Positions 59 through 27,026 of a DNA stretch of 64,000 nucleotides are shown here, one piece after another. This DNA is from Bacteroidia bacterium (GTDB lineage Bacteria; Bacteroidota; Bacteroidia; Bacteroidales; UBA932): NCBI GenBank assembly GCA_030537315.1, contig JAUNNZ010000007.1, positions 381 to 64,380 on the forward strand, written 5' to 3'. Numbering within the stretch: position 1 is the stretch's first letter; each line of letters opens with the position of its first letter. Under the pieces are notes generated by a model that worked only from the letters and a program-made list of their open reading frames with translations, did no database searches and had not been told where the DNA came from. The position numbers and the translations under genes were made by a program.

Positions 59-448
59 TCAATACTGATTGAAGTCAACACCCTTCTGAACCACGTTGAG
101 AGAAGACGTCACCGTGCCGCCGATACCATTTGTCGTGAACAGGACAAGCGCCTGCCTTTCCTGCGAATCAAGGGATTCATCGTTGGCCGATGCCGAAACC
201 CTTATTTCTCTCGAACTCTTCCAGGAATCTGCAGACAATGTAAGCCAGCCGGTCTGTCCTCCGGAATACCTGATCTCTGCAGTCCAGGCTGCAGTAGAGA
301 CAACCTTGACAATGGCATATGAATCACCGCAGTCAAGAACCACCGCATCCGGTTCAACCTTTACGGAAGCGGGATCCTCCTGTTCGCACGAACACAGCGA
401 CAAGGCGGCCGCCGCCATCATCGCCAATATCTTTGTAATTTTTCTCAT
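59..448 (-). CDS. BACON-domain lipoprotein
   Basis: Likely start MRKITK at 448; lipobox SLCSC; BACON-like pattern (V.STAAW.A, WLTLS, V.ASAN....R.A...F, L.VVQKG). Confidence 0.75.
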   Translation of the reverse strand: MRKITKILAMMAAAALSLCSCEQEDPASVKVEPDAVVLDCGDSYAIVKVVSTAAWTAEIRYSGGQTGWLTLSADSWKSSREIRVSASANDESLDSQERQALVLFTTNGIGGTVTSSLNVVQKGVDFNQY

Positions 449-475
449 TTCTCCATCATTAAGAAGCATCAGCTC

Positions 476-2821
476 CTATATGTCACGTTCCTGATATTCA
501 AACACGGTATTTCCAATGCGGAACTTGCGTCCGCGATAAAGCCTGATTTTCTTCCCGGCCGCCAATGCCCGATTATTGACCGTTATGCCGTCTTCAACGG
601 CGAACAGGTAAAGGGCGCCGTTGACCATCTTTATTTCAGCTTTCTTCGGGCCGATGCCCGGAGAGACATCCCAGGACATCTCAAGTGTGCAGTCAATGGA
701 CTTACCTATTGTGACAACTGTATTCGGATTCGATGCAAACCACTTGTAAAGAGCGATGTCCATTTCCTTTATCGCACCGCTAGCGTGAAGGAAGAACCGC
801 TCGGAACGTGGCTCTGCGTGTGCAAGGCCGATGGCAATACCGATTGCAAATATCTCAAAAGTATAAACCATATATGGCCTGTAATCCAATGAGAGCCGGA
901 ACGAGAAGAATGACCATAAGAACATGGTGCCCACGCAAATGGCAACAACCACGAAAAGTGAACGGGCATTTATCTTGAAATTCGTTCCATATGACGAACA
1001 GAGGGCTACCACTACGCCGGACAATGTCCATGGTATCCAGTCAATGATGATCGAATTGCTCTGAAGATTCAACAGGATATCCGCGACCGTAGCCAGAAAG
1101 AAGAGCAAAGAAGCACATATACCGGCAATACCCGACCTTGCCAGGATACCCAGCAGTCTTGCATGATGGCCACGACGCCGCACCGACACGAAGCAGAACG
1201 CCATCGTAAGTATGAATATCATTATGAATGCGAACGACGGCAGCAACAGCGGGATATGTTCGATGGACACGTTGAGTTTTTCGGATATTGAGTGAATCAC
1301 ACGGCTGTCGAAGCCTTTGTATGCCGTAAGATACAGTACCCATACAAGCAATCCCCCAAGGACAGCCACGACGACCCATTTAAGATAGTATGGGGCGTTG
1401 CGTATGTCGAACCTGTTCTCCTTGTTGTAATAATGCGCACCATGCCTGCAATTCCTGCCATACTCCGGACAGTGATAATCATTTTCCTCCCAACAGCTCA
1501 TATGCATCGTATGTTCGCATCTTGCGACGACTTCGTCACCGGCCGCATACGGAGCCTTGCAATAGTAACAGGTGTCGCCGACAAGTACTCCCGATATGCT
1601 CATATTGGCATCAGTATATCTTCCCGTATATTTCTTTTTGAATCGTTTATACTGGATCGCCGGAATCAGCAACTGGCACACCAGGTAAAAGAGGAAAAGA
1701 ATCGCCATTGTGAAGATAATGCCCCTGGCAAGCATCACATCGGTAGGAGATGGGTTGACCAATATCGGCTTGAAGAAACTTCCCATCACTATCCCCGTGG
1801 ATCCGGAAGCTACTTTTTCTCCATTGTGATAACAATCGATCACCAATGTTTTTCCGAATCCTGAATACATCTTGTGGTCAGGGTTCTCGAACACGAACCG
1901 ATAATCGGTGTAATCGATATGAAGCTTCTTGAAAATCTCATTTTCAATCTTCACCCAGTCGAACCCATCGAAGATGTTGCCTCCGGTGTTCCGGCAGATG
2001 GTACTCAGGAACGGATACGCATCGTGCTGTTCCTCCGCAGCGACAAGATCGCCGAAAATATCGACAAAATACATCAGATGATGCGCATCGGTGCGCATCG
2101 ACTTGTCCAGAAGTTCTGTTTTTATCTTGAAATAGTTGTCGTCAATCGCGAATCCGTCATCATAGAACACTTTGCCATCAGAAAGGACAAGTAAAACACG
2201 CTCCGAAACATCTGAGAAAGGACCGTTCTGATCGGAAAGGAGATTGAGACCGCGGGAAATCGAACTGTACAGGCGTTTTTCCTCCGTATCAACCGATTTG
2301 AAATAATTATCAAGGACGTATTCAGACGGAGCCATTATCCCACTTGTCTCATATTTCCTTGAAATGAAGGCGACATAAAGGTTGTTGTTAGTGAAAAGGG
2401 TGCTCATTTCCTCCACGGCTGCACGCTCCTTGTCAACCATATCCTGAGGCAGGGTGAGATCCACAAGCACAAGCATCTTCATGTTCAAGGCAACGACCTG
2501 AGCCGCGCCTGTACGCTGAACATCCACCAGATCCGGCTGGGCACCCTGGAACGAAGGACGCCCGAGATAATCAAGTTCCACAACGTCATAAACGACGTCC
2601 GGACTGACCAAAGAGACAGAGCCTATGCTCTGGGCAACCCTTGTATCAACCGTGAATGTCTTGTAATCATCCGAGAAAATAACATCGGTGACTTCAAGCG
2701 TTTTCTTTTCTTTCCCAGTGGAAGCCGGTAAAATATCCTCCAATGGGTTATTGACATTGGCGCATCCTGCCACTGTCAGAAGTGGCACGACGGACAGCAA
2801 TATGCGCCGTATGAATTTCAT
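476..2821 (-). CDS. Membrane protein: lipoprotein signal + vWA + TM + RING-like zinc finger + about 6 TM + degenerate FHA (putative E3 ligase)
   Basis: Lipobox TVAGC; vWA strands MLVLVDLT and LLVLSDG; CYYC-x13-CEHTMHMSC-x7-CPEYGRNC; seven hydrophobic segments; C-terminal VTIGK...IRLYRGRKFRIGNTVFEY FHA-like fold. Confidence 0.75.
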   Translation of the reverse strand: MKFIRRILLSVVPLLTVAGCANVNNPLEDILPASTGKEKKTLEVTDVIFSDDYKTFTVDTRVAQSIGSVSLVSPDVVYDVVELDYLGRPSFQGAQPDLVDVQRTGAAQVVALNMKMLVLVDLTLPQDMVDKERAAVEEMSTLFTNNNLYVAFISRKYETSGIMAPSEYVLDNYFKSVDTEEKRLYSSISRGLNLLSDQNGPFSDVSERVLLVLSDGKVFYDDGFAIDDNYFKIKTELLDKSMRTDAHHLMYFVDIFGDLVAAEEQHDAYPFLSTICRNTGGNIFDGFDWVKIENEIFKKLHIDYTDYRFVFENPDHKMYSGFGKTLVIDCYHNGEKVASGSTGIVMGSFFKPILVNPSPTDVMLARGIIFTMAILFLFYLVCQLLIPAIQYKRFKKKYTGRYTDANMSISGVLVGDTCYYCKAPYAAGDEVVARCEHTMHMSCWEENDYHCPEYGRNCRHGAHYYNKENRFDIRNAPYYLKWVVVAVLGGLLVWVLYLTAYKGFDSRVIHSISEKLNVSIEHIPLLLPSFAFIMIFILTMAFCFVSVRRRGHHARLLGILARSGIAGICASLLFFLATVADILLNLQSNSIIIDWIPWTLSGVVVALCSSYGTNFKINARSLFVVVAICVGTMFLWSFFSFRLSLDYRPYMVYTFEIFAIGIAIGLAHAEPRSERFFLHASGAIKEMDIALYKWFASNPNTVVTIGKSIDCTLEMSWDVSPGIGPKKAEIKMVNGALYLFAVEDGITVNNRALAAGKKIRLYRGRKFRIGNTVFEYQERDI

Positions 2822-2860: not shown

Positions 2861-3745
2861 TCAAATGCACGGGTAGTCATCATCTTTCTTGCCAAGACCT
2901 TCCATCATCTGCTTCGCATTCTCCTTCAGTTGCTTCGCTGCTTTCAGTTTCGACTGCATCATTGAAATGAACATCAGCACCACGGCAACAGCGGCAAGAC
3001 CAAGAAGATAATCCTTTATTCTCTGGATAAAAGGCTTGTAGGCAGCTTCCTGAATCTTAGCCGACGTATTCTTTATGACGATGAAGTGGTCTTCCAACTT
3101 ATCCATTTCAGGCTGAAGTGACGGTACAAGTTCAACCGCCGCCTTCGCCTTGTCGTATTTCTCTTGAATTTCAGCGAACAGCAACTGTTCCTTTCCTTTC
3201 AGCTTCTCAAGTTCGCTCTGGGTCCTTTGTGACATTGAAAGGGCATTGGCCTGCTTGAACATCCTGATGTACAGCGAATCCTGCGACTCTATATAACCGA
3301 CGGATTCCCTGAATTCCGTCTGCGCATCCATCTTTGATTTCAGTTCTGTCATCGCTGCGACCAGAGCCTCGTCGACCTGGCCATAATCGGCAACCTCCTG
3401 CATCAGTCTTTCGTGGTCGGCAATGAAACCCTGATAAGATTGATAATATGTATTCCAGCGGAGCTTCGCTGAATTGTAACGCCTGTTAATATCAGGGTAG
3501 ACATCACTCGGTGCTCCAGGAATTGCATCCGAGATCTCCTCCAGTTCAGAAATGAATGCCCGTATCTTTCTGCTTACCTGCAGCAGCATCTGCCTGTCTT
3601 CCATATCGATGGTTGCGGGAGAAGCCGCAGGGGCAGGGGCAGTAGCCGGTGCAGTGGAGGCGGAAGCATCCTGCGCAAAAGCCGAAGTCCCTGCCGTTGC
3701 AAGAAGCAACAGCACAGATAACAAATATTTCTTTAAAACTGTCAT
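2861..3745 (-). CDS. Exported helical protein with C-terminal TM anchor and Lys-rich tail, unknown function
   Basis: Signal peptide ending AFA-Q; Ala/Pro linker; coiled-coil-like body; TM YLLGLAAVAVVLMFISMM; ATGA overlap with the upstream gene. Confidence 0.8.
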   Translation of the reverse strand: MTVLKKYLLSVLLLLATAGTSAFAQDASASTAPATAPAPAASPATIDMEDRQMLLQVSRKIRAFISELEEISDAIPGAPSDVYPDINRRYNSAKLRWNTYYQSYQGFIADHERLMQEVADYGQVDEALVAAMTELKSKMDAQTEFRESVGYIESQDSLYIRMFKQANALSMSQRTQSELEKLKGKEQLLFAEIQEKYDKAKAAVELVPSLQPEMDKLEDHFIVIKNTSAKIQEAAYKPFIQRIKDYLLGLAAVAVVLMFISMMQSKLKAAKQLKENAKQMMEGLGKKDDDYPCI

Positions 3746-4842
3746 TTTATAATCTGCCTGCTATAATTTGCCGCCTTCTGGAAGATGGAATAAGCCCTTC
3801 TCTGCTCGGCATCAACAAGTCCGTTTGTCTTGACCATATTCTCGATGTCAGCAATCATATCTTCATTCTCCGACGCCATGTCGCGCCGCTCGACAGGATC
3901 ATCCGAAAGCAGCCATTTGGACACATTGCCGTCTATTACCCTCGCGGTCTTGAGCAGAAGCGAGGCATCCACGCCAAGTTTCTTCGGCGTATAGACACAT
4001 TTCATCACCGCCACCGAATCGACGAAATCATTGTAAACGTTCCATATATTCTGCAGGGCGGTGCAGGATGTTGTTATATCCTTGTGGACAAACTGGGACA
4101 TAACAGCCTGTTTCAACTGTGCAAAGACATCTGCTAATTCCTGAGAATCGGCAACGCCGCCTTTCGAGTTTTCCTTCAGGGCATTATAATTCTGGAACAG
4201 ATTTTCCAATGTGGTGTTGGCCGCGGATATCTCCTCATCCTTCCCGAAGCACGGGTTATGACCGATCGTTATATTGTACCGCGTCTGCAAGTCCTTCCCA
4301 GTCATGATCTCTTGTCCTTCAAGCAGATAAATATCCCGCAACGTCACACTGACATTGTTCCCGGGAAGGACATCGAACACCTGTTCGATATAGTCATTGA
4401 CCATCTGGAATTCCGTAGGCTGCGGCTGCAGGCCCTTGTATTCAACCCATTTGTTGAAAATATATTTGGAACGCGGAGACTTGATCGTCCTGATGAGCTC
4501 CTTGCTGAAACGGAACTTGGATTTCGGCTCTGCGTTTATCACATACGGGAACTTGTCCGGGATAATCCTGCCGAAGAAATTGATGATGGACTGATATCTC
4601 ACCGGCTCGCGGAATACGAACAGACTGCGATATGAAATCACGCTCAAGGTAAGAGTGTTCTTCTCTTCGCTGTACTGGAATTTCACCATCACATCGGTGT
4701 CTCTCGAGTCCTGCTTAAGCGCGATATGGTCGGTATATGATTCTTCATTGCTGACATATATATCCTTGACGCTCTGTCCCTTCACCATCGTGCCGGACAG
4801 CAGCATCAATCCAAGAATAACTGCTTTACTTGAAATTCTCAT
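3742..4842 (-). CDS. Exported hypothetical protein of the T6SS/Ubl operon
   Basis: Likely start MRISSK at 4842, 4 nt after the E2 stop; signal peptide; beta-rich N-half and helical C-half. Confidence 0.75.
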   Translation of the reverse strand: MRISSKAVILGLMLLSGTMVKGQSVKDIYVSNEESYTDHIALKQDSRDTDVMVKFQYSEEKNTLTLSVISYRSLFVFREPVRYQSIINFFGRIIPDKFPYVINAEPKSKFRFSKELIRTIKSPRSKYIFNKWVEYKGLQPQPTEFQMVNDYIEQVFDVLPGNNVSVTLRDIYLLEGQEIMTGKDLQTRYNITIGHNPCFGKDEEISAANTTLENLFQNYNALKENSKGGVADSQELADVFAQLKQAVMSQFVHKDITTSCTALQNIWNVYNDFVDSVAVMKCVYTPKKLGVDASLLLKTARVIDGNVSKWLLSDDPVERRDMASENEDMIADIENMVKTNGLVDAEQRRAYSIFQKAANYSRQIIK

Positions 4843-4846
4843 ACAG

Positions 4847-5401
4847 TTAAAAATAAATCCATTCATTCGGTTCACCCTGGCGGATGACCCAGGCCGCCAC
4901 CTGCTGGTCTTCAGGATATGGCGGCTCATTCACAGCGTGATAACGTTCGTACCGCAAATATTCTTCTATCCTTCCTATGCCCCAGGCCAGGCTCGTATAG
5001 CTGCTGAACCTGTTCAGGCAAACATGCCCTGCCATCTTGCCGAACCACCTTATGTTCGGATGCCAGGGATGGGCTATCGGTGTCCCATCGGCGGCAGAGG
5101 TCAGGAACCTGAATTCCGCTGGCGCATCAACACAAGGGAACTCTTCAGGCAAATCTATGCAAAGCAGGAAGCTGTCAGCGAACAGAGGTGGATTCTGAAC
5201 GCCGGGCATTCCAAGCGCCTCAACGTTCTCCACTCCGCAGATACTGCGTATGTGGTACTCCACTTCGTAGCGCGTGGGCATCCCGGCCGCGTTATGAAGC
5301 AGCGGCCGGCAGATGACATCACCACGACCGTCGAACTGTTTGCCGATCTCCTGCCATTCAATCAGCAGACGCCTGTCTCTCCCCTTCAGATCCATAGACA
5401 C
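4847..5401 (-). CDS. Ubiquitin-conjugating enzyme E2-like protein (UBC fold)
   Basis: N-terminal RRLLIEW helix, IDLPEEFP..DAPAEFRF, and HPWHPNI-x7-GHVCL matching the UBC HPN-I...G.ICL active-site signature (Cys codon 5020-5018). Confidence 0.88.
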   Translation of the reverse strand: MSMDLKGRDRRLLIEWQEIGKQFDGRGDVICRPLLHNAAGMPTRYEVEYHIRSICGVENVEALGMPGVQNPPLFADSFLLCIDLPEEFPCVDAPAEFRFLTSAADGTPIAHPWHPNIRWFGKMAGHVCLNRFSSYTSLAWGIGRIEEYLRYERYHAVNEPPYPEDQQVAAWVIRQGEPNEWIYF

Positions 5402-5718
5402 TAACCCGGGAACGGGTCGGGTATTATGAACACAGTATCGTCATTGTGGACGTTGTAGTCAACAAGCTTCTGGTCGGTCTTGCCGATTCGAGGGCGCATC
5501 ACCCGCACGCGGTGGTCGTCAGCGTCCTCCTTTGCAAAGAAATATTCAAGCGGAGCGCCCGTGTCGTCCAGCGACGGGAAATCGAAAATCAATTTTCCGT
5601 CGGAGCCCGTAGCGTGGCGCAAATTGTCCATCAGGGTGGAGAGCGGTGCGTCAGGGTTGGTAACGCGGAACTTCACCTTCCTGTTGAGATAGACAATGTT
5701 CAAAAAGTAATCTTCCAT
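5401..5718 (-). CDS. Ubiquitin-like (beta-grasp) protein ending in Gly
   Basis: C-terminal QKLVDYNVHNDDTVFIIPDPFPG aligns without gaps to the ubiquitin tail [23 protein letters not shown]; stop overlaps the E2 start. Confidence 0.78.
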   Translation of the reverse strand: MEDYFLNIVYLNRKVKFRVTNPDAPLSTLMDNLRHATGSDGKLIFDFPSLDDTGAPLEYFFAKEDADDHRVRVMRPRIGKTDQKLVDYNVHNDDTVFIIPDPFPG

Positions 5719-5731
5719 ATTCGTTTCAATG

Positions 5732-7414
5732 TTATGACTCTGAAAGGATGATCTTCAACCTTATCGGATATATGCCGGCACTGCGCACAAACAGGCCTTT
5801 CTCTATCCTGGAGGCCACTAAGACAGGGTCCTGGCCCAGGCTCCTGCGCACGAAAGTATTGTCTTTCAGGGTGATTGCAACATTTATCTGGTATCCGCAG
5901 TCACGCGTGTCCGTCTGTTCACGATGAATCCGGATTGATTTTATCATATTCTGACCCAAGCCGTAACGTACAGAAAGTTCCGTAACACAGAACAGCCTGA
6001 TGTCGGCGGGAGTCACGATGCGGCTGTTGGTCGCAAGATAGAGCGACGCCATTTCAGGATAGTCGGAGACATTTAGCTCATCCCTGCCCGGGACGGGTGG
6101 GGCGAGAAGATGCACGCTTCCCGGGTCTATACCCAGCGGCGCAGAGAAGGCAACATCACCTTCAAGTGACGGGTTGACCGCAGCGCCGTCCGTTATGAGA
6201 TACTGAACATCAATATTGACTTCGGTCTTATGTCCCACAGGGCCCTGTCGCAGAATAAGGTACGTACCGGATGCGCGCCCCTCCCCGTCACGGGCCGCAA
6301 CGTTGAGCATCTTGTCCACCAGTCCGTTCACAGCCTGGATTGTCTTGTCGCCATTCCTTGAATGGATATCCTGGAAGGCATAAAAATCAGACGAGAACTT
6401 GGCGGAAAGGCTTGTGAGCAATCGGACCAGGCTGCTCCGGTTGAAACGGTCCGCAGCAACTTTCCGCACCTGGACGATACAGTTATGGAAAACCAATTCC
6501 GTCGAAGGACGCATCATCTGCAGGAACTGGCAGGACTCCCCGCCGACACGTGAGAAAGGTGCGCTTGACGAAAGGCTCGTCTCCTGAATGGATGCATTCA
6601 CAAGAATGGCCGGATTGAGTACCAGATTATCCTTGTCCATAGGATAATCGACAGGTATGCCTTCGAATTCAAACTCCAGTTCTATAAGTCCTTTCTCAGC
6701 ATATCCGTATTCCTGAGGGTCGTGCTCCTCAACGGTAAAAAGGCATACATTGTGTGAATTGAACATATCCATCACACCGACGGAATTGTCATACGCCTGA
6801 CTTCTGTTGAAAAGCATCGTATCAAGGGAGAATGCGTCACTGAACGGGAGGTTGGCCGGTTCCCAAGGCTTTGAGATCAGGAGCTGCTTTCCTCCACAAT
6901 ATATCTTCAGATTCGAGAAACCGGAATCCTTCACCACGAAAGAGAATCCGCTCAGATCCTCCACGTTGTCCAGGAACTTCAAGGCCACCTTCCACCTTCT
7001 TCCATCCAGCCTGACAACGGATTGGACGTGAGAGTTGAACGCACGCGTCTTCAAAAGGGGAATGAACTTGAAATCGGTGCCCTCGATGGTAAAAACGGAG
7101 CCGGAATTCAATTCCACCTCATTGATGTTGTCGCTCAACTTCATCGAGACCAGAATGTTGGCCGGCTCGGCGTGCCCCGCCATATACGGCAGCACGGCCT
7201 GGGTATATTCATCTATGACATCACCCTTGAGCCGCTCTATCTCGGCATCTATCTCGTTGGCCTGATAGGCCATCGCTATCATAAGCAGATTGAAGACAGG
7301 GTCATTCTCCAGACCTTCAAGATAGTCGCTCTGGTCGCTCTGGCGCCAGATGTTCATCGCTTCCTTGAGAAGGTCCTCGGCTCGCTGCCTCGTTTCAAAC
7401 GTTGTTTTCTTCAT
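5732..7414 (-). CDS. tssF: T6SS baseplate subunit TssF (Bacteroidota type, divergent)
   Basis: N-terminal W....LE..ENDPVFNLL..AMAY and C-terminal TNSRIVTPADIRLFC motifs typical of T6SSiii TssF; 560 aa; context. Confidence 0.8.
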   Translation of the reverse strand: MKKTTFETRQRAEDLLKEAMNIWRQSDQSDYLEGLENDPVFNLLMIAMAYQANEIDAEIERLKGDVIDEYTQAVLPYMAGHAEPANILVSMKLSDNINEVELNSGSVFTIEGTDFKFIPLLKTRAFNSHVQSVVRLDGRRWKVALKFLDNVEDLSGFSFVVKDSGFSNLKIYCGGKQLLISKPWEPANLPFSDAFSLDTMLFNRSQAYDNSVGVMDMFNSHNVCLFTVEEHDPQEYGYAEKGLIELEFEFEGIPVDYPMDKDNLVLNPAILVNASIQETSLSSSAPFSRVGGESCQFLQMMRPSTELVFHNCIVQVRKVAADRFNRSSLVRLLTSLSAKFSSDFYAFQDIHSRNGDKTIQAVNGLVDKMLNVAARDGEGRASGTYLILRQGPVGHKTEVNIDVQYLITDGAAVNPSLEGDVAFSAPLGIDPGSVHLLAPPVPGRDELNVSDYPEMASLYLATNSRIVTPADIRLFCVTELSVRYGLGQNMIKSIRIHREQTDTRDCGYQINVAITLKDNTFVRRSLGQDPVLVASRIEKGLFVRSAGIYPIRLKIILSES

Positions 7415-7430: not shown

Positions 7431-7889
7431 TCAGTTCCATACCATTATTCGCTTGTGGAACTGGTAGTCCTCGCCTGTTTCAATTATGATACCTGTCACC
7501 ACTATGTGGATCGCACGCTCCTCCCTCATATATGTCATAGCCACCTTCAATTCGCCAAGACGTTTTTCAACCCTGGCTATCGCCGACTTCAATTCAGACG
7601 CGAAAGTGTTGAAATTCCTGGAGTTACCGGAAATTTTCTTTTCATATATGCTTGTGTCCAGAAGAGGAGTGATGTCCTCCTCCCCAACGTCAAGCACAAC
7701 ACCTTCCTTCTCGTCTATCTGCTCGAAACGCAGGTTCGAAAGGACAAAGCCGAACTTCGGATCTATAGGATTGCTGAACAGAGGCGTGGATATCACAAGC
7801 GATATCGATTCGTCAATCGCCTCCTTCAGGTTCTTGTGCCGGACGAACTTCCCGTCCTTTATGGTAAGTGGCAGAGACAGGTCTCCCAT
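7431..7889 (-). CDS. tssE: T6SS baseplate subunit TssE (gp25/GPW family)
   Basis: SISLVIST...DPKFG.....FE and SAIARVEKRL gp25-like motifs; 152 aa. Confidence 0.82.
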   Translation of the reverse strand: MGDLSLPLTIKDGKFVRHKNLKEAIDESISLVISTPLFSNPIDPKFGFVLSNLRFEQIDEKEGVVLDVGEEDITPLLDTSIYEKKISGNSRNFNTFASELKSAIARVEKRLGELKVAMTYMREERAIHIVVTGIIIETGEDYQFHKRIMVWN

Positions 7890-7892
7890 AAG

Positions 7893-9029
7893 CTAGATCA
7901 AAGGTGTATATACGTCCTCCTCAACCTTAGGCGGCACGAACAATGCATCATAGAGCGACTGGTAGAGTGAGGAGAACAATTTCTGCTCAAGTTCAGTGTT
8001 CAGCTCAACGCCAAGGTCGTCGTGCAGTTTCCTGCGGAACTCGCCGCTGATGAAATCCTGCAGCGCCTCGGAAATCTGAGCCTGCATCTCTTCACGGAGC
8101 GCTTCCATCTTTTCCTGGACGCTTTGTGTCAGCTCCGGTTGGAGAGTCTCATATAATTCCTTCCTCAACTGTTCGCGGAGGGCGTCCACGTCAATCGTGC
8201 TGTCCTTGACCTCCACTCCGTCCAGGACAACGGCCGCCCTGCCAAGATAATCGTCCAGCCACTTCAGCCACAGCTGGACATCATACAGTGAACTTTCAGG
8301 TATCTCCTCGTGCTCTTCTGTATTCGGGTCCAAGACATAATATTTGACTGAGTTTGCTATTTCAGCAGTAAGGAGGATGAACTCATCGACCCTTATCTCA
8401 GGCCTGAGGCTCTTCAACAGAAGCATATTCTGGAGCATTGCACGCTTCATATCTCCAGAAGAAAGATTTTTATGTCCGGATACGGCCTCCATCTTCCCTC
8501 TCAACGATTCGCAGGCCACTGCAAAGCGAGGGTCTGAAACCATCTGCATACACGGGACTATGTATTCCCTGTCAAGAGATATCTCTCCGTCTTTAACGGA
8601 AAAGCGCATCAACGGCAGTTCATCACACTTGCCCAGTTCAGAGAAGCTTCGAATTTGATATACATACTCCGGCCGTGACATAGGCACGGTATCGCGTTCG
8701 AATTCAACAACTTCCTGTCCTATTCCCACGGTGAGGTAATGAAGTCCGTCACTCAAGTCCCCTATCTGGATTGAAGACCGGTCCTCCACATCTATCATCC
8801 TGCCTGATGGAAGCAGCGCCGTGCAACCGTCAACCTCGAATTCAAAAGACTTCCTGACGAAAGCTCCCTCGCATTTGAAATGCTCATTGGGCAATATGCC
8901 CACGCGAGAGCCGAATGCGGAACGCAGCAATGCCAGATCCCTGGCATCAGACTCTTTTGACAACGCCTTGAGAGCCTCCGCAGTTATCTCCATTCCAGGT
9001 TTCCAATTGATTCGGGAATTAATATCCAT
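7893..9029 (-). CDS. tssK: TssK-like baseplate protein with a helical C-terminal region
   Basis: N-terminal INWKPGMEI and YIVPC motifs as in T6SSiii TssK; lies between tssG and tssE. Confidence 0.7.
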   Translation of the reverse strand: MDINSRINWKPGMEITAEALKALSKESDARDLALLRSAFGSRVGILPNEHFKCEGAFVRKSFEFEVDGCTALLPSGRMIDVEDRSSIQIGDLSDGLHYLTVGIGQEVVEFERDTVPMSRPEYVYQIRSFSELGKCDELPLMRFSVKDGEISLDREYIVPCMQMVSDPRFAVACESLRGKMEAVSGHKNLSSGDMKRAMLQNMLLLKSLRPEIRVDEFILLTAEIANSVKYYVLDPNTEEHEEIPESSLYDVQLWLKWLDDYLGRAAVVLDGVEVKDSTIDVDALREQLRKELYETLQPELTQSVQEKMEALREEMQAQISEALQDFISGEFRRKLHDDLGVELNTELEQKLFSSLYQSLYDALFVPPKVEEDVYTPLI

Positions 9030-9040: not shown

Positions 9041-9826
9041 TTAATCAAGTTCAATGTTGTAATCAAGTATCATTTTCCCTCCTTCGACTCCGTCACCGGA
9101 CTTCTGCCTGATTGCAAAACGGCAGACAGTATCCACAGGGATGAACCATTCGAGGAGGAAGTTGCAGAACGGCTTTATTTCAGCTGCCATCCTGCCGTAT
9201 TCCTCCACATCAAGGCCATCGACAAGCAAGTCATACCTTACCATAGGGAGCCAGCTTACAGTTGTATCCGTGCCGCTGAAACGTCCTCGCGACATTTTTA
9301 CCGGACAGCCCAGCACTGATTTCATCAGTTCGCGGATGAACACGAAATCTCCCCTCTTCTTGCTGACATAAGGAAGAATATAGGCTGCCTCACGGATATA
9401 CGGGTCGGTATTCTCATCCACCTCCACTCCATAATATCTGCTGAGTATAAAGTCCATCTTGTCCTCCAGAAGTTCAGACACCGTCCTCTCAATCCGGAGT
9501 TTTTTCCGGAAGTTGAAGGAATCTATAGGCAGGAACGCTTCCATCAGCAGATGGTTGCGCTTCTTCATAGCTTCATACTTTCCTTTGACCTCCTTTCCCT
9601 TCAGTTCTTCCTCCCTCGTGATGACACCCTGTGGAAGGAGTTTCAGGAAACCGTCCCGCGCCAGGGTCACCTCTGCCGTCTCGGGATCGACAGCAAGCGT
9701 ATCGTCGTTGTAATTCCGATAGAACGTGCCCTCGTGTCTCGCCACCCACTTGTCTTCAAGCTCAGGGTAGAGATAGTTCAAGAGCATCTCAGCGCTTATT
9801 TCCTTCAGATCCGATCTTAATTCCAT
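9041..9826 (-). CDS. tssG: T6SS baseplate subunit TssG (Bacteroidota type)
   Basis: GTFYRNYNDD, LARDGFLKLLPQG, FLPID and WFIP motifs; context. Confidence 0.75.
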   Translation of the reverse strand: MELRSDLKEISAEMLLNYLYPELEDKWVARHEGTFYRNYNDDTLAVDPETAEVTLARDGFLKLLPQGVITREEELKGKEVKGKYEAMKKRNHLLMEAFLPIDSFNFRKKLRIERTVSELLEDKMDFILSRYYGVEVDENTDPYIREAAYILPYVSKKRGDFVFIRELMKSVLGCPVKMSRGRFSGTDTTVSWLPMVRYDLLVDGLDVEEYGRMAAEIKPFCNFLLEWFIPVDTVCRFAIRQKSGDGVEGGKMILDYNIELD

Positions 9827-10962
9827 CAGTCGATTTCAAAATACGACAGCCTTCCGCCAGCCCTTACCTTCAGCACATCCCTCGGCGGAATGCCGAGTTC
9901 GCCCAAAGTCAGGGACTTGTACGGGAATGTACCGTCAATCTGCCTGTATTCGTTCTGCCACAGCGCCGAAAATGGCACTTCACGCATCTGCGGATGCGCT
10001 TCGGCAAAAGCCGCAACCTTGCGCCCCGGCAGCATGACCCTCCAGGAGCGCCCGCCATCCTTCTCTTCAACCGTATCCACAAAGCAGTCGTCGTGCAGGA
10101 AGAATGTCACATCCTGTGCGCCGGTGACAGCGGCAAAACCACCCAGCACGGCATCAACCGTGCTTTCAACATTAATATCCATCTTTCCGACAGGCTCCCA
10201 GCGCCCGTGCACCGGACAGTCGTCGTCGTATGCTTCAAACTCAGCGGTCCTCGTGGTCAGATGCTGACCGTCATAATAAAAAATCTTCCCTCCCAGGGAT
10301 GTGAACTCCCCCCTCTCCATCTCTTCAGTGTGCAGGAGCTTGATTGCTTCCTGAACCTGCACAGCCCCTATCACTGATGCCGCGACCCCCGTTGTCGGGA
10401 TGTGGCCGACATCCTCGTTGCGCCTGATCGCACCCGCGCAGGATGCGCGGCGCTTCAGCTCATCCAGCCCGGCAGGGCCCAGATTGCAGGCGTAACAGTT
10501 CTTTCCGGGCACAAACACCCTTGCAGTCCCTTCCAGGCCGTCTATCCCCCCGTCAACCCAAGGCGTGCCGGCTCTCATACAGAGCCTGTTGATGCAGTAT
10601 CTCGCCCACCTGCTGTCCACGCAGCCGATCACAACGTCCGCTTTGCGGAATACACCCAACCCCACATCATAAGCGACGTCGCCGAAAATCGTTTCAATCC
10701 CAATGCCGGGATTAAGTTCTTTCAGTCTCTCTGCGGCGGCATCTACCTTGCGGCGACCTGCAGCCGCATCTTCGCGGCGGAACAGGACCGAACGGTTCAG
10801 ATTCGAAGCCTCAACCAGATCGAAGTCCACGATGGTGATATGTCCCGCTCCCGCGAGCGCCAGATTCTTCAGCACTTCATTCCCCAGCGCCCCGCATCCG
10901 GCAACTATTATACTCGCTTCCCGCAACCTTTCCTGAGAGAAGGCCAGCCCGTCAATATTCAT
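9826..10962 (-). CDS. ThiF/UBA-family E1-like activating enzyme with C-terminal extension
   Basis: GCGALG nucleotide loop, DFDLVEASNLNR, GCVDS, CYAC...CPVH zinc site, candidate catalytic Cys in KRRASC (C175); 1-nt overlaps with vgrG and tssG. Confidence 0.9.
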   Translation of the reverse strand: MNIDGLAFSQERLREASIIVAGCGALGNEVLKNLALAGAGHITIVDFDLVEASNLNRSVLFRREDAAAGRRKVDAAAERLKELNPGIGIETIFGDVAYDVGLGVFRKADVVIGCVDSRWARYCINRLCMRAGTPWVDGGIDGLEGTARVFVPGKNCYACNLGPAGLDELKRRASCAGAIRRNEDVGHIPTTGVAASVIGAVQVQEAIKLLHTEEMERGEFTSLGGKIFYYDGQHLTTRTAEFEAYDDDCPVHGRWEPVGKMDINVESTVDAVLGGFAAVTGAQDVTFFLHDDCFVDTVEEKDGGRSWRVMLPGRKVAAFAEAHPQMREVPFSALWQNEYRQIDGTFPYKSLTLGELGIPPRDVLKVRAGGRLSYFEID

Positions 10963-13900
10963 TACAGATACTTCTCACAGAACGTCTTGACAGCGTACAA
11001 GTCTGAATTACTGAAAGATTTAAGTGTACCATTGTTAAAATACATTGTAGTGCCCTCAGTATCAGATATCAGTATCTGTCCGCGGCTTTCAGCGCTCCAG
11101 TTCCTGAATCCCTGAATTGATTTGCCGGTGAGTTGCTGGACAGGATTCAACTTGTCGAGGATGGCCTTGCCTGCATCCAGGATAGACGCCTTCAATTGGC
11201 CTTTCAGGCCGACATATTGACCTTTAAACTTATACTTGATATACTTTCCCCACTCATCATCACTATTGTAAATATCATTTTTGGTAATTGCTGCACTGCT
11301 GAGGCCAGATATCTTTTCGGTGCCATAGGCTACGTCAAGGACGGCTGCCACAATTTGACGTTTAATCTTATTGGGATCCACAAGAAGATACCTGGGATCC
11401 TTTATTATATCATCAAATTCACGCTGAATAGCATCCGTATAAGGCCCCAGATCTGCAGTAGACATAATTTTGGTCAGGTTGTCACCTTTGCTGTTTTGCA
11501 CCTGCCAGACCGTGTTGACCTGTACCAGTTTAAAACCAGTGGTAAGGCATACATTCCGGAGCTTTTTTATCATTTCGTTGGCTGTTGATAGCAAATCTGA
11601 CACTGAAGGGCCGAACGACGGATCACTTTGCCATTTCAATTTGTCGATTTTGCCCAACACGTGGTTATGCATCACCTTGATTTTGCCGACGAATTTGGAG
11701 CGCATCCACGTTTTCCTATATTCCTCATAATCGTCAGTAAATTTGATGGCAGAGCTTTTACAGTCAAACAGTTTGGCATCCTTGTTAATAGCCTTCCTGA
11801 TCAAAGTGTCAAAGGTGATTGCGTTGGAGTCCAGTATAGGCTTATGTTCATCTCCTTGCTTAAAAGTAAATGTGTCTTTCCACGTCTTGACGGTTTCCGC
11901 CAAGACACTGTCTATTTCCCTTCTATTATATAAGAGTGTATTCACAGCCCCGTCTATGAAATTCAAGGCATTGAGGAGCTTGGCTATCTTATCTCTTTCG
12001 TCATTTGAAGACGTTCCCTTAGGAATAACGAAACCCGTCCTAGGCATTTTCGCCGCAGCTCCGCCCGCCTGCATCATAAGGAAACGACCGCTCTTAAGAC
12101 TCAATGTACCTTCGCAAGGCTTGATGAAAATCTCGATCACATTCCTGAGATAGCTCAGATCAATGAGCATAGGCATAGCAGTATCAGTGACGAAATCAGC
12201 CGCCGCACCCAGAATCATATCTGAATATGTGCGGAAAGATCCCTTCTTTGCGTTGAAACCGGATTCAATGGTGACATTGTTTCCCGCTGTCAAGGTAATG
12301 TTCTTTCCGGCAATGTTTATGTCTCCGTTCGGGGCATTGATTGAAATTCCGGTGAATGCATTGATTCCGACTGTTCCGAAAGGACTGTTTATTGTAATGG
12401 ATTTGTCGGTAGAGCTCATCTTCAATGAATACGTACCGTAGTAATCGGTGAATTCAGTGGAGCCCAGCAGACGTGGCTTGTACTCTGAGTAACTGCCACC
12501 GACCATATCCGGCAGGACCCAACTCATCGGAGCCATCATAATAGGCATTGCATCCGCACCCAAAACGCTGTTTCCGCTTTTCGGGTCACTCATAAGCATC
12601 ATCTGCCCGTGCTCGGAAGACAAGACCACCGTATTGCGACGCGAAAGGTACTGGCCTTTGTTCTTCTGCTGATCCATTGTCGGCAGGAAGCCCGTGACAT
12701 ACGGCATATCCACATTGCCGTTCTCAAACTCAATCAGCGCACTGTCTCCAACAGCAGCCTTGAAGAATGCGGCACCTCCATTTGAATTCGCCATCTGGGT
12801 GCAAACCCTGATCCAAGGACTGGAATCCGCGCCATCCTTCTGCCAGCAGAAACGCACACGCACACGGCCAAGGAAAGAAGGGTCATCCACATCGGTGACG
12901 TATGCTCTCTGGCTACCGGCCTTTCTTACCGGAATGACGGAACAAGGCGGGATAGGCGCCCCGTTCACCTGAACGGCGACAACGTCTATCGGCTGACAGG
13001 CAGCCGTGGACCCATCCGCATTAACAATGACATCAAATGAAGCATTGATGCCGGTCACCATATAGTTAATCCCATCGAAAACAATGATGTCTCCCAGCAT
13101 CACATCCTTCGATATATTGGAAGAAATCTGCAATGAGAGCTGCTTCCGGCCTGCTTCGGCCTCCTTCTCCCAAACCAAAGAATAGAAAACTGAATTGACA
13201 TTAAGGTTCTTGTCCTTATCAAGAGATGTTATTTTGCGGTCACTGATACCGAAAAGCAACTTCTTGTCAACCGTCTCCCCCGAGAAGAATTTTTCATTGA
13301 AATGCTTATTGACGGTCTCCGCAAGACTACTGGTGTCCGAGGCATTTTCCTTGACAATATTCACTGCCGCAAGGAAAAGTCCGGCACCCATCGTATGCGT
13401 AAACAACGTGCCGAATGTATGATAGAAGCCCATTGCAGTATAGGCACGCTCCTCTTTGCTACTGCTGAACTTGTCTTTCTCGACGGTTTCAAAATACTCA
13501 TTTCCCGAAAGCTCAGAATTCCTGACATAGTTTTTGCCGGAGTATTTGCTGCCGCCCTTCTCCATATAGTTGTTATGGAAGGACTCCGAATCAGCCCCGT
13601 GATTATGCGAGGTATTGAAATCGGTATACACTATCCTGTCAAAATCGCTGCTGGTGAAATTATTCCCGGTCTTTGCTCCGAGAGTCAGCTTATTATTCCT
13701 GTCATCATAATACAGGAACTCGCCGCATCGGTTCGCCACTCTGGAGAGGAAACTGTAGAATGTCTCGTTGTACTGGACAAGATACGGCTGCAGGAATTCA
13801 TCTCCGTTCTCGTCCGTATTCTTGGTCTGGTCTGTCCCTGTGAAAGGCAAGCGCAGAATCTGCATATTCTTGCATTCCGTGGAAAGGGATGGGGAAAGCG

Positions 13901-14534
13901 TCTTGGATTCTTTTTTGAAGATATCGATACCAAGGCGCTTGTTTGTATATGCCTTGCTGTATTCAAATGAATCCAGAACCTTATCGGGACTGTATATTAC
14001 AAGATCAAGGAACAACTTTTTCTGCGCTGTATCATATCTTGGTGAAGATTCATAGACTTCATATCCGTCAGCAATCAGCTTGGCAGTGACTGTAGTATCA
14101 ACTTCAATGCTTGTGTTACCGGTCCGGGCATCCACAACCTCCTTAAAACTGACAACCTCAAGTTTTGCCCGCGCCTCCTTGAACCAGTCTGCAATACCGG
14201 GCAATATGCCGGCATTGAATTCGGTAGAGCATTCCAGCGTGGCCCTGATACAACTTGGCTCGTACAACTGTTTTTGGTACTTCAATGAGAAAAGGTTGAG
14301 CTTCCCGAAATCAATGGAATCTTTGATGACTTTTGTCTGTTTTTCTTCTCCCTCTTTTTTCGGTGGCTCATCAGTGGTTATTATGACTCTGCCCGAAACA
14401 GGGGTATCATTACAATTTGTAAAAGACACAACGAAATCCTCATCATCAATGGTCCAAGAATTGTAATACCTTTTAACCACACTCCCATCTTTGTATAAAG
14501 TCAAAGTGAGACGGTATCCATAAAAATTACCCAT
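10962..14534 (-). CDS. vgrG: VgrG/TssI spike protein with long C-terminal extension
   Basis: gp27-like VQYNETFYSFLSRVANRCGEFLYYD; gp5 OB-fold DDPSFLGRVRVRFCWQ...SPWIRV...VGD..LIEFENGNVDMPYV; beta-repeats ISINAPNGDINIAGKNITL; 1190 aa. Confidence 0.9.
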   Translation of the reverse strand: MGNFYGYRLTLTLYKDGSVVKRYYNSWTIDDEDFVVSFTNCNDTPVSGRVIITTDEPPKKEGEEKQTKVIKDSIDFGKLNLFSLKYQKQLYEPSCIRATLECSTEFNAGILPGIADWFKEARAKLEVVSFKEVVDARTGNTSIEVDTTVTAKLIADGYEVYESSPRYDTAQKKLFLDLVIYSPDKVLDSFEYSKAYTNKRLGIDIFKKESKTLSPSLSTECKNMQILRLPFTGTDQTKNTDENGDEFLQPYLVQYNETFYSFLSRVANRCGEFLYYDDRNNKLTLGAKTGNNFTSSDFDRIVYTDFNTSHNHGADSESFHNNYMEKGGSKYSGKNYVRNSELSGNEYFETVEKDKFSSSKEERAYTAMGFYHTFGTLFTHTMGAGLFLAAVNIVKENASDTSSLAETVNKHFNEKFFSGETVDKKLLFGISDRKITSLDKDKNLNVNSVFYSLVWEKEAEAGRKQLSLQISSNISKDVMLGDIIVFDGINYMVTGINASFDVIVNADGSTAACQPIDVVAVQVNGAPIPPCSVIPVRKAGSQRAYVTDVDDPSFLGRVRVRFCWQKDGADSSPWIRVCTQMANSNGGAAFFKAAVGDSALIEFENGNVDMPYVTGFLPTMDQQKNKGQYLSRRNTVVLSSEHGQMMLMSDPKSGNSVLGADAMPIMMAPMSWVLPDMVGGSYSEYKPRLLGSTEFTDYYGTYSLKMSSTDKSITINSPFGTVGINAFTGISINAPNGDINIAGKNITLTAGNNVTIESGFNAKKGSFRTYSDMILGAAADFVTDTAMPMLIDLSYLRNVIEIFIKPCEGTLSLKSGRFLMMQAGGAAAKMPRTGFVIPKGTSSNDERDKIAKLLNALNFIDGAVNTLLYNRREIDSVLAETVKTWKDTFTFKQGDEHKPILDSNAITFDTLIRKAINKDAKLFDCKSSAIKFTDDYEEYRKTWMRSKFVGKIKVMHNHVLGKIDKLKWQSDPSFGPSVSDLLSTANEMIKKLRNVCLTTGFKLVQVNTVWQVQNSKGDNLTKIMSTADLGPYTDAIQREFDDIIKDPRYLLVDPNKIKRQIVAAVLDVAYGTEKISGLSSAAITKNDIYNSDDEWGKYIKYKFKGQYVGLKGQLKASILDAGKAILDKLNPVQQLTGKSIQGFRNWSAESRGQILISDTEGTTMYFNNGTLKSFSNSDLYAVKTFCEKYL

Positions 14535-14540
14535 ATCCTA

Positions 14541-15257
14541 TCAGTTTTCCAAGGTCATATCACCCAACTGCATCTTGAAGGCAGCATCTACGCCTTTTGC
14601 AGCCTTTTCCTCATTTATCTTGTTTTCATTGCTGTCGTCTGACTTGCACCAACGTTCGTAGGCGTCTTCAATCTCTTTCGTCTTGCTCTCCTTCTGGGCC
14701 TTCACCTTCTCGACGAATGAATTATAAGCGTCTTCAAATTCCTTCTTTGTCTCATCCTGTGTTTCCTTCGGAAGGGTGGCGGCGGCAACTCCCGCCTTTG
14801 TGGCGGCAACGTCGAAATCAAGCTTCATCCGCTTGTCGCAGTCTTCATACAAAGCATTAACCAGATCAAGCATAGTGTCCTTCCTGTCCTTGTCAACAGG
14901 CGGGACAGTCAGCACAATAATCTTCGGAGCAGGCTTGTCGTCAGACTCTTTCTTTGCGGACGGATCGTCCACAAGATCCAGTTTAAACTCAGGATGTTCA
15001 AGCAATATAGCCTTGCATATGTGCGGTATCAGATCCTGGTCAATAGGAATAAGATGGAGGCAGGTATCATCCGGCTTTGCCAGCTGCGCCACCTTTTCTA
15101 TCTCGTATTCGTTTTCGTCAATGACCACCTTCACGGATAGAAGGGAAACAGGATCAGGCTTGACGCAGATATTCATATACCTGTAAGCAAGCAAGGTACA
15201 ATATCCATACAGGCGGCCCTGCATATTGTTTAGAATGTCCAAAATCTGAAATGTCAT
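14541..15257 (-). CDS. Ribosome recycling factor (RRF)-like paralogue, degenerate
   Basis: Collinear RRF pattern: NICVKPDPVSLLSVKV (~IRTGRANPALLD.I.V), PDDTCLHLIPID (~PDARTLVIQPWD), IIVLTVPPVDKDRK (~IRL.IPPLTEERR), terminal KESKTKEI helix. Confidence 0.7.
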   Translation of the reverse strand: MTFQILDILNNMQGRLYGYCTLLAYRYMNICVKPDPVSLLSVKVVIDENEYEIEKVAQLAKPDDTCLHLIPIDQDLIPHICKAILLEHPEFKLDLVDDPSAKKESDDKPAPKIIVLTVPPVDKDRKDTMLDLVNALYEDCDKRMKLDFDVAATKAGVAAATLPKETQDETKKEFEDAYNSFVEKVKAQKESKTKEIEDAYERWCKSDDSNENKINEEKAAKGVDAAFKMQLGDMTLEN

Positions 15258-15269: not shown

Positions 15270-15656
15270 TTACTTACCTGTTGCTTGTGATCCCTGGCCC
15301 GGGAACGTTACCGAAATCTGACCTCCCCACGCGCACATACATTTACCATTGTCAAGCAAAGCCGGCATCTGGCAGACCTTGACCTGTGCCCCCGGATTCC
15401 AGGGCGCCGAGATCACCGGGATGCAAGGCATAGGGGTGAGAACGCCCATTGCGGCAGCCGTTGCGGCAGCCACTTGCGGGTTGGACATCGACTGGCACAT
15501 TCCAAAAGGTTTGATGTTCACCATAGGGGCGAAATCCATAATGTTGGCCATCGGCATATTCTGGTTCATCGGACGCATACCGACTACGGTCAGAGGCGAT
15601 GGTGCCATTCCGAAGCTGCATTGGAGCATAGCTCCCATCGTAACGAATTTCCCCAT
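15270..15656 (-). CDS. PAAR-like spike tip protein (DUF4280)
   Basis: GAMLQCSFG, NIKPFGMC, PCIPVISAPW, KCMCAWGGQI are DUF4280 motifs. Confidence 0.92.
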   Translation of the reverse strand: MGKFVTMGAMLQCSFGMAPSPLTVVGMRPMNQNMPMANIMDFAPMVNIKPFGMCQSMSNPQVAAATAAAMGVLTPMPCIPVISAPWNPGAQVKVCQMPALLDNGKCMCAWGGQISVTFPGQGSQATGK

Positions 15657-18812: not shown

Positions 18813-19291
18813 CAGTCGCAATTGTGTATGATGTGCAATGACTTGTTGGAGTCAACTCCGAGGTATGTGATGGAGGACACCAGGATGCTGACGCATATGC
18901 TCTGCCTCAGCAGGCCGTCGTCAGGCGATGAACTTTTGTGGGTCTCATCGACATCAACCACATAGCCATAGACAACCATTCCGGCATCATATCCCTTCAG
19001 CTTCGAGTTCTCGTCGAAAGTCGCATCGAACAGAAATGAGAACGGGCAGCGTGAGTTCTGCTGAAGTCTTTCATAAAAGACCTTCCCACAGTCGGCGGAA
19101 GCCGATTTGACGGAAAGGTTCAATACGACTGAAAGTGTCGAGCCGAAAGGAACTCCCGTTTCATCACGGGAGCGTTCGCACTTGTAATCAAAATGCTGTA
19201 CGGTAAGGAAACTATCCCTGGTTATGGCGGCCGCACTCATCGTGACATCATCCGCCACAATCAACGCCTTGTAATGATTAGACAATAACAT
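18812..19291 (-). CDS. Divergent Hcp/TssD-like tube protein
   Basis: Likely start MLLSNH at 19291; FDYKCERSRDETGVP and GYVVDVDE resemble the TssD pattern; fourth gene of the tandem set. Confidence 0.55.
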   Translation of the reverse strand: MLLSNHYKALIVADDVTMSAAAITRDSFLTVQHFDYKCERSRDETGVPFGSTLSVVLNLSVKSASADCGKVFYERLQQNSRCPFSFLFDATFDENSKLKGYDAGMVVYGYVVDVDETHKSSSPDDGLLRQSICVSILVSSITYLGVDSNKSLHIIHNCD

Positions 19292-19298
19292 AGACTTC

Positions 19299-19715: not shown

Positions 19716-19738
19716 ATCAATAATTGGTTTTCAGAAGA

Positions 19739-20137: not shown

Positions 20138-20165
20138 AATTGATTTTCTTTAAATGTTCAAAAAA

Positions 20166-21964: not shown

Positions 21965-21981
21965 AGTATCGTTGTTTTTAA

Positions 21982-22446: not shown

Positions 22447-22460
22447 AGTAACTGTGGTAT

Positions 22461-26129: not shown

Positions 26130-26137
26130 CCCCGGTA

Positions 26138-27016: not shown

Positions 27017-27026
27017 ATTGAAGTTG

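Follow-up and report, generated by a model that had tools for sequence, protein, structure and literature searches.

According to the accessible text of PMC10781749, the type VI secretion systems (T6SSs) of Bacteroidota, type T6SSiii, combine TssB/C, TssD, TssE/F/G/K, VgrG, PAAR and ClpV and require the proteins TssNQOPR. tssN is nearly ubiquitous there and lies systematically between tssK and tssG; TssN has five transmembrane (TM) segments and a ubiquitin-like domain that is proposed to serve in baseplate docking; TssR is a von Willebrand factor A (vWA) lipoprotein (PMC10781749). Prokaryotic operons that encode a RING protein, an activating enzyme (E1), a conjugating enzyme (E2), a ubiquitin-like protein (Ubl) and a JAB protein are known as predictions (PMC7159879, PMC3417536, PMC11354881 and PMC11601603, as far as their accessible text goes). 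Here we analyzed a 64,000-nucleotide stretch (the window) of contig JAUNNZ010000007.1 from a Bacteroidia bacterium (Bacteroidales, UBA932), in which a T6SSiii-type operon encodes E1, E2 and Ubl together with a membrane protein that carries a RING-type finger (the RING protein). Searches of this Bacteroidales T6SS lineage did not detect TssN, TssO or TssR, and our data suggest that the RING protein is likely both the membrane anchor and the ubiquitin ligase (E3) of the lineage, a reading to which we give a probability of roughly 0.55. The locus is a variant of the predicted prokaryotic RING ubiquitin systems, situated in a T6SS lineage that we did not find described.

A preliminary description of the window had listed a lipobox, a vWA domain, one TM segment, a RING-like finger, six further hydrophobic segments and an FHA-like C-terminus in this protein. 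All of these are present according to hydropathy, homologs and an AlphaFold model (94 sequences; mean pLDDT 83.7, pTM 0.69), and hydropathy and the model agree on seven hydrophobic helices, one before and six after the finger. The protein is real and conserved. We compared it with the best 120 of 216 homologs (the close set) and with a wider set from a profile search of 50%-identity representatives, which gave 444 matches at E≤0.001; 146 new proteins were stored, of which 111 of at least 700 residues were kept and 35 shorter ones dropped. The lipobox cysteine, Cys20, is present in 120/120 close homologs and 82/111 wider representatives. Since the window protein itself scores under the Pfam cut-offs (no FHA or VWA match; zf-RING_2 at E 0.021), the domain assignments are based on its homologs and on the AlphaFold model. 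Matches of the full profile to PAC1/LIS1 (E 0.018) were rejected as chance.

The finger ligands are C418-x2-C421-x13-C435-x-H437-x2-H440-x2-C443-x7-C451-x6-C458 (nt 1570-1448), in exactly the spacing and position first noted. All eight Cys/His ligands occur in 120/120 close homologs and in 107-111 of the 111 wider representatives, and the exact spacing recurs in 42/42 full-length loci (see below). W444 is invariant in both sets (120/120 and 111/111), and P452 is kept in 120/120 and 94/111. A ninth residue, H463, is present in all 120 close homologs; because only 79/111 wider representatives keep it, C458 is the likelier eighth ligand. The position at x2 of the last pair is Y, H or F, and a longer insertion is described in prokaryotic RINGs (PMC11354881, accessible text). 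A loose RING pattern was matched by 0/20000 shuffles of the protein. At E≤0.01, zf-RING_2 matches 40/42 finger segments and Prok-RING_1 (PF14446) matches 39/42, weakly (best E 5e-6). The PF14446 cut-off of 29.1 bits is not reached (full-length homologs 16.8-19.6 bits; no match for the window protein), and judged by sequence the RING protein is a relative of PF14446 and not a member by threshold. Modeled in isolation (pLDDT 77.4), the finger has the RINGs of RNF38, RMR1 and RNF13 as its top Foldseek matches (best E 0.028) and those of RNF38, ZNRF1, RNF13, Ark2C and RNF12 in VIA-align (Z 5.9-5.0; best match Z 5.9, root-mean-square deviation (rmsd) 3.9, 67 aligned), where the top seven rows are all RINGs. 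The RING-like fold is supported in that the top matches are RING E3s, at modest scores.

We found 44 loci in a scan of species-representative genomes, mostly from Prevotellaceae, Parabacteroides, Bacteroides and Alistipes and including the cultured isolates Xylanibacter ruminicola D31d and Parabacteroides distasonis An897. Two of them are isolated C-terminal fragments of the RING gene without the cassette or a cognate E2 in the genome (L042:10160-10576 and L043:10049-10672), probably remnants of lost loci, which leaves 42 full-length loci. Five records labelled Firmicutes or Sphaerochaetaceae (L014, L018, L020, L026 and L040) carry the whole locus and are probably mis-binned Bacteroidales contigs. 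Across the 44 loci, a conserved protein that we call U395 is present in 41, E2 in 39, Ubl in 38, TssF in 37, TssK/G/E in 36 and E1 in 33; a further membrane protein, ccTM, is encoded separately in 35 and forms one open reading frame with the RING protein in 6, which suggests that the two act together. Misses lie mostly at contig ends: E2 is found in 39/42 full-length loci, and the three without it have less than 2 kb of upstream DNA. L037 and L044 have long flanks and no E1 nearby, with an E1 on another contig (56% and 47% identity).

The predicted cascade is intact where it can be read. The HPN motif and Cys128 of E2 are present in 39/39, Cys175 of E1 in 33/33, and the same C-terminal motif with a free Gly in 38/38 Ubls. 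UQ_con matches 30/38 E2s, whose best solved relatives are UBE2K and Ubc13, and the Ubl profile finds ubiquitin-fold entries weakly. By these residues E1, E2 and Ubl look active, and a Ubl with a terminal Gly, an E1 with its Cys, an E2 with HPN and Cys, and a RING stand in one operon, as in the predicted tri-ligase operons. The proposed linkage of the RING protein to an intact E1/E2/Ubl set within a T6SS operon is thus borne out. No JAB gene was found in the window operon; in the source genome (G000, 82% complete) PF01398 gave no match and PF14464 (Prok-JAB) only a below-cut-off match on another contig. Strong Prok-JAB matches in other carrier genomes were left unassigned, as they lie on contigs other than that of the RING gene in the four checked.

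The RING protein is rare, with 4/351 genomes of the order positive and three full-length proteins among 11 matches in a phylum sample of 401 genomes; the other 8/11 (E 1e-9 to 1e-12) covered the vWA or FHA part only and were not counted as homologs. No relative was found on viral contigs, and a metagenome scan for outgroup loci gave none. JAB is present in the outgroup loci L048, L050, L055 and L057. In genome G193, which has a T6SS, a membrane JAB gene precedes the RING gene. G013 (L048) has the order E1-Ubl-E2-X-membrane JAB-RING followed by SrfB and SrfC-like genes, without TssC, and here, where JAB is present, the Ubl extends past the Gly. In G524 and G705 (L055 and L057), an nSTAND1-E1-Ubl-E2-membrane JAB-RING-like cassette stands back to back with the PAAR and eCIS-core genes of an extracellular contractile injection system (eCIS), with no TssC in either genome; G524 additionally has tube, sheath, Pvc16 and gp25 genes after these. 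Since the cassette is intact in L048, L055 and L057 without TssC, the RING protein travels with E1, E2 and Ubl rather than with the T6SS, and these fixed partners are the strongest argument for the finger working as an E3. In a quick, midpoint-rooted tree of 38 hand-picked rows, from which we draw no donor or order of events, the 14 rows from JAB-less T6SS loci group as one clade (SH-aLRT 100) and the five rows of non-T6SS type as another. Among the outgroups we also observed that the nSTAND1-E1-Ubl-E2-JAB-RING-like cassette is divergent from the eCIS locus (PAAR, eCIS-core, tubes, sheath, Pvc16) in L055:8837-17728, L057:8726-17673 and L059. In L048:1548-20000 and L054 the SrfB/SrfC-like genes are followed by a subtilase and a second JAB protein, and further on by a protein with a Ubl-like N-terminus and by transglutaminase- and papain-like proteins.

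The same outgroups bear on whether the finger is catalytic. It could be a zinc scaffold in a purely structural anchor, with E1 and E2 conjugating Ubl without an E3 as in Bil operons, which are described with E1, E2, Ubl and a deubiquitinase (DUB) only (accessible text of PMC11601603 and PMC11354881). The ligand loss in L055/L057, the non-canonical ligand spacing and the E2 loop considered below would suit a scaffold. Against it, a finger or a U-box-like remnant stands beside E1/E2/Ubl in three genomic settings, and W444 and P452 are conserved across the wider set; we regard a scaffold without ligase function as quite unlikely. The ligand-poor fingers of G524 and G705 resemble a U-box.

We next consider where the domains lie relative to the membrane. 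Lysine and arginine content per residue, over 121 aligned sequences, is 0.05 before TM1 and 0.28 after it, followed by 0.06, 0.35, 0.04, 0.32 and 0.13 in successive loops and 0.15 after TM7; the predicted inside loops have 0.28, 0.35 and 0.32 and the outside loops 0.06, 0.04 and 0.13. Loops rich in these residues face the cytoplasm (the positive-inside rule). This bias predicts a periplasmic vWA domain and places RING and FHA in the cytoplasm, hence in the compartment of E1 and E2. The fusions of ccTM to the RING protein fit the same topology, which had first been proposed from a count of TM segments and is upheld by both observations. The vWA domain is an insertion in a beta-rich region, and its fold match extends over 178 aligned residues (rmsd 3.4). 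Its metal ion-dependent adhesion site (MIDAS) reads DLTLP in place of DxSxS, a degeneracy already noted in the preliminary description.

The FHA fold is clear (Z 12.6 to the FHA domain of DgcB, rmsd 2.5, 98 aligned; homologs match PF00498), and the residues by which FHA domains bind phosphothreonine (pThr) are absent, as had been proposed and as the alignment of 120 homologs confirms. K707 occupies the position of the GR arginine (K in 112/120 and R in 4/120 close homologs), the serine position of SxxH is A or G, and the NG pair is not conserved. Because 38/111 wider representatives keep the FHA arginine and 19/111 keep DxSxS, the degenerate FHA and MIDAS are traits of the clade. The FHA domain retains some conserved surface, since K685, K693, W694, G706, S708 and W717 are invariant. 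A Ser/Thr kinase was not found in the 82%-complete source genome, which fits a phospho-independent FHA domain.

These domains also bear on a receptor-type regulator, in which vWA would sense a periplasmic cue, RING-dependent Ubl transfer would license assembly or firing, and U395, ccTM and a PEGA protein would serve as the anchor. The ectodomain-TM-RING layout and the receptor-type RNF13 and RMR1 among the top fold matches suit such a protein, as does the failure to find a kinase in the genome, and the outgroups, with MIDAS kept in part and a membrane JAB, would suit reversible signaling. In the clade of the window, by contrast, MIDAS is degenerate, no JAB was found in the operon or the 82%-complete genome and so there is no obvious reset, no ligand or cue was identified, and the RING protein is the only multi-pass membrane protein identified in the operon, with TssN missing. 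We consider this regulator unlikely, and the evidence favors an anchor or assembly role over that of a sensor. The envelope-signal input proposed in the preliminary description is, for the same loss of MIDAS and lack of an identified ligand, not supported.

Our data indicate that the apparatus itself has a canonical T6SSiii core: TssC, TssD, TssE, TssK, TssG, VgrG and ClpV were recognized by profile, and TssB and TssF by position. We searched for membrane-complex proteins in 39 carrier genomes. These represent 36 of the 44 loci (the two fragments were excluded, as were six bins that had no label or one outside Bacteroidota) and three order-level hits. TssN and TssR were over cut-off in 0/39 carrier genomes (one weak TssN match, E 9e-4) and TssO in 0/40 genomes including G000, in a search that covered mostly incomplete genomes and did not include TssP or TssQ. 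The end-to-end operons of two isolates are also without TssN, TssO and TssR genes. As controls, 6/351 genomes of the order have TssN over cut-off, and these carry TssO in 6/6 and TssR in 3/6. Sequence comparison of the RING protein, ccTM and U395 with TssN showed no similarity. Unlike in T6SSiii, where tssN intervenes, tssG abuts tssK in the window operon. TssC was found in 35/37 genomes with T6SS context at approximately 330-357 bits full-length versus 729-770 for canonical controls, which argues for a separate T6SS lineage. The Bacteroidales T6SS survey names only GA1-3 in its accessible text (PMC10942478), and the present loci define a gut and rumen lineage outside GA1-3 in which TssN is not detected. 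The preliminary description had compared the protein to the kinase/Fha trigger and suggested that it possibly replaces it. This was the wrong comparison, since the accessible text of PMC13584744 lists TagE/TagH for genera of Pseudomonadota and the locus is of T6SSiii type; what goes undetected is TssN, TssO and TssR instead.

We found that the C-terminal tails of TssK and ccTM are alike, with acidic residues and an aromatic residue before a final P-x-I/L. The P-x-[IL] end is present in 36/36 TssK and 35/35 ccTM, and the strict pattern in 36 TssK and 27 ccTM proteins. It matches 2/1538 open reading frames of the genome, namely TssK and ccTM, and 0/3 canonical TssK proteins. Both tails are predicted to be cytoplasmic, and the FHA domain is a candidate reader of them. 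Conserved lysines of the ccTM tail (K266 in 32/35, K271 in 33/35, K278 in 29/35) are possible Ubl acceptors, and the positive-inside bias would explain them too. A search for ccTM or U395 as remnants of the ectodomain of the outgroup JAB protein gave no match. In 33 loci E1 is separated from Ubl and E2 by tssG-K-E-F. Furthermore, pairwise identity of the RING protein co-varies with that of TssK (rho 0.86) and TssF (0.81), compared to 0.89 between TssK and TssF; because kin are not independent, these correlations indicate co-inheritance only.

Interleaving, co-variation and the tail that TssK has gained in common with ccTM all argue against a surveillance or defense module that is carried in the T6SS operon as a passenger, does not act on the secretion system and tags damaged or foreign membrane proteins or phage parts, or against an apparatus that is no cell-puncturing weapon. 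PADLOC likewise gave no match for the RING protein, E2 or Ubl. On its side, the cassette occurs without TssC beside nSTAND1 and eCIS or SrfB/SrfC genes, other bacterial E1/E2 systems are anti-phage (PMC11601603, accessible text), and neither the window operon nor the two other end-to-end operons showed recognizable toxin-immunity pairs. We hold such a module to be highly doubtful.

Starting from the observed domain order, invariant finger residues, operon linkage and non-detection of TssN, TssO and TssR, we infer binding and transfer steps for a RING protein that is both anchor and E3. E1 would adenylate the free terminal Gly of Ubl and pass Ubl via Cys175 to Cys128 of E2. The RING protein, ccTM and U395 would form an envelope complex, and the non-phospho FHA domain, or an adjacent cytoplasmic surface, would bind the acidic P-x-I/L tail of TssK or ccTM and dock the baseplate. 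RING would then recruit E2~Ubl, and Ubl would be ligated on site, with the Lys-rich tail of ccTM, a baseplate subunit or the RING protein itself as acceptor. In this way conjugation might build the hub of membrane protein and ubiquitin-like domain that TssN supplies as one polypeptide. Given that the operon has no JAB gene, tagging would be one-way in the clade of the window, an assembly step and not a reversible switch. A more far-reaching version is possible rather than probable, and we advance it tentatively: a co-opted ubiquitin cascade of eukaryote-like kind may have taken the place of the membrane complex in this lineage, with a receptor-like transmembrane RING E3 that captures the baseplate through a phospho-independent FHA domain reading the P-x-I tail of TssK, Ubl attached covalently as a docking hub, and the module separately recruited beside eCIS and SrfB/SrfC genes. 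If so, RING-dependent conjugation of a ubiquitin-like protein would be what assembles this bacterial machine.

Several observations weigh against the RING protein as anchor and E3. Concerning the finger, the fold scores are modest even though the top ranks are all RINGs, single-protein Pfam RING matches are all below curated cut-offs, the last ligand pair C451-x6-C458 is not the C-x2-C of RING-H2, and the helix Trp lies three residues earlier than in RING-H2, making the helix shorter by three. The E2 loop after Y-P has C, S or Q and never Phe; in UbcH5-type E2s, a Phe in that loop contacts RINGs. The fingers of L055/L057 have lost several zinc ligands with the cassette kept, and in G133 (92% complete, 670 contigs) a RING homolog occurs with SrfB and no cognate E1 or E2 was found. 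Concerning the anchor, diverged TssO, TssP or TssQ could go unrecognized as U395, ccTM or the PEGA protein, since TssC scores in this lineage are half those of the controls, and Ubl as a homolog of the TssN C-terminal domain gave no profile match. The 2/1538 tail count is partly circular because the pattern was derived from TssK and ccTM, and counts over related loci or homologs concern kin that are not independent.

The locus resembles several described systems in part. It shares with PF14446 and tri-ligase operons the RING insertion between the last ligand pair, a separate E1, a UBC-like E2 and a Ubl, and a JAB in outgroups, and differs in that its RING is part of a lipoprotein-vWA-7TM-FHA protein, its genes are interleaved with T6SS baseplate genes and its clade lacks JAB. 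The primary paper on the predicted tri-ligase Ubl/E1/E2/RING/JAB operons is that of Burroughs, Iyer and Aravind (2011), cited in PMC7159879 and PMC3417536. With T6SSiii TssNQOPR, as far as described (PMC10781749), the locus has in common a multi-pass inner-membrane protein, a vWA lipoprotein part and a ubiquitin-like domain in some form; its Ubl, unlike that of T6SSiii, is a free gene with E1 and E2. Eukaryotic transmembrane RING-H2 E3s (the PA-TM-RING proteins RNF13 and RMR1; the RINGs of ZNRF1 and RNF38) provide the closest solved finger folds and the same order of outside domain, TM and cytoplasmic RING, a layout that we treat as analogous. Differences are vWA in place of PA, six further TM segments, FHA, the C-x6-C last pair and a shorter helix.

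Among prokaryotes, the Ub/E1/E2/RING/DUB operon of Caldiarchaeum subterraneum (PMC11354881, PMC3082918) is likewise a eukaryote-like cascade with a RING-H2 E3, whereas the accessible text of PMC11354881 includes no secretion system and no membrane RING. Bil, Bub and CBASS Cap2 also conjugate through bacterial E1, E2 and Ubl, as experimentally shown for those systems (PMC11601603, PMC11601596); no RING E3 is described for them in the accessible text, and their roles are anti-phage or unknown. TagH/Fha1 also links an FHA domain to T6SS assembly at the membrane, but TagH, which in Pseudomonadota has PpkA as its partner, is a binder of phospho-Thr (PMC13584744, accessible text), whereas the window FHA domain is membrane-tethered with neither pThr residues nor a kinase found. 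The word 'ubiquitin' is absent from the accessible text of this 2026 review of T6SS accessory factors. Full-text literature yielded no ubiquitin-like cascade within a T6SS, and Burroughs 2011 may include this domain architecture, just as the supplements of PMC10781749 could list such loci as incomplete T6SSiii. In the accessible literature we found no bacterial RING E3 for which activity with the cognate bacterial E2 and Ubl had been demonstrated; the tested bacterial conjugation systems serve phage defense or have no known role. The present locus offers a complete predicted cascade with candidate substrates adjacent, in cultured isolates. Together with the lineage in which TssN was not detected, it bears on the anchoring of contractile machines and on the origin of receptor-type E3 ligases.

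Table 1. Features of the window operon and its surroundings (positions count from the first nucleotide of the window).
Feature	Positions	Strand	Basis or remark
BACON-like lipoprotein, downstream of RING gene	59..469	-	
Membrane RING protein, lipobox-vWA-TM-RING-6TM-FHA	476..2821	-	781-aa open reading frame
FHA-fold domain, res 674-781, pThr residues absent	479..802	-	Fold match, homolog alignment
Six-helix membrane bundle TM2-TM7, res 481-668	818..1381	-	Hydropathy, AlphaFold model
RING-H2-like finger C418..C458, insertion between last two ligands	1448..1570	-	Homolog conservation, fold matches
TM1, res 364-388, then K/R-rich cytoplasmic segment (predicted)	1658..1732	-	Hydropathy, model, charge analysis
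vWA domain, res ~111-304, degenerate MIDAS, predicted periplasmic	1910..2491	-	VIA Z 14.9; homologs match PF00092
Signal peptide and lipobox, Cys20	2762..2821	-	Cys20 conservation in homologs
ccTM: signal peptide, helical ectodomain, one C-terminal TM, Lys-rich tail ending P-x-I	2861..3745	-	
U395, signal-peptide-like N-terminus	3742..4929	-	Conserved, 41/44 loci
E2, UBC fold, HPN and Cys128; likely start ATG 5395	4847..5401	-	
Ubiquitin-like protein, free Gly end	5401..5718	-	
TssF-like baseplate protein	5732..7414	-	Size and position, no family match; 37/44 loci
TssE (gp25)	7431..7889	-	PF04965, E 1.7e-7
TssK, helical C-terminal extension ending acidic-[FY]-x-P-x-I	7893..9029	-	TIGR03353; hhalign 98.3% to canonical TssK
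TssG	9041..9826	-	hhalign 95.8%
E1 (ThiF family), Cys175	9826..10962	-	
VgrG, long C-terminal extension of no family	10962..14534	-	
Ribosome-recycling-factor-like gene	14541..15257	-	PF01765, E 1.5e-10
PAAR-like DUF4280	15270..15656	-	
600-aa conserved protein, before PAAR	15659..17461	-	No family
Four tandem Hcp-like genes	18812..20558	-	Three match TssD PF17642, fourth no Pfam match
TssC (PF17541), TssB-like (by position), ClpV-like AAA+ ATPase; operon head	20609..24692	-	
Two lipoprotein-like genes, upstream of operon	24822..27151	-	

The RING gene is the second to last in a row of 23 genes on one strand, between which no gap exceeds 50 nt. Their order is ClpV-like ATPase, TssB-like, TssC, four Hcp-like, PEGA protein, 600-aa protein, PAAR-like DUF4280, ribosome-recycling-factor-like, VgrG, E1, TssG, TssK, TssE, TssF-like, Ubl, E2, U395, ccTM, RING protein and BACON-like lipoprotein. 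Similarity of the Hcp-like genes to TssD decreases along the tandem. The ribosome-recycling-factor-like gene recurs in 20/44 loci, usually directly before E1, and in Prevotellaceae a large BACON-repeat protein follows the RING gene (PF13004 in L004; same cluster in six loci). Searches of Pfam, NCBIfam and PHROG assigned U395 to no family, and its match to one Atlas cluster, at 0.80, serves as a lead only. Three RNA-library runs gave contigs of related strains over the operon, and such contigs cannot show transcription; a raw-read run yielded no reads. The two lipoprotein-like genes upstream are unassigned and presumably fimbrillin-like. From 27284 onward, on the forward strand, the window carries a cell-wall and division cluster (mraW, penicillin-binding protein, Mur ligase, mraY) with a GC content of approximately 0.51-0.57, compared to approximately 0.48-0.52 across the T6SS region.

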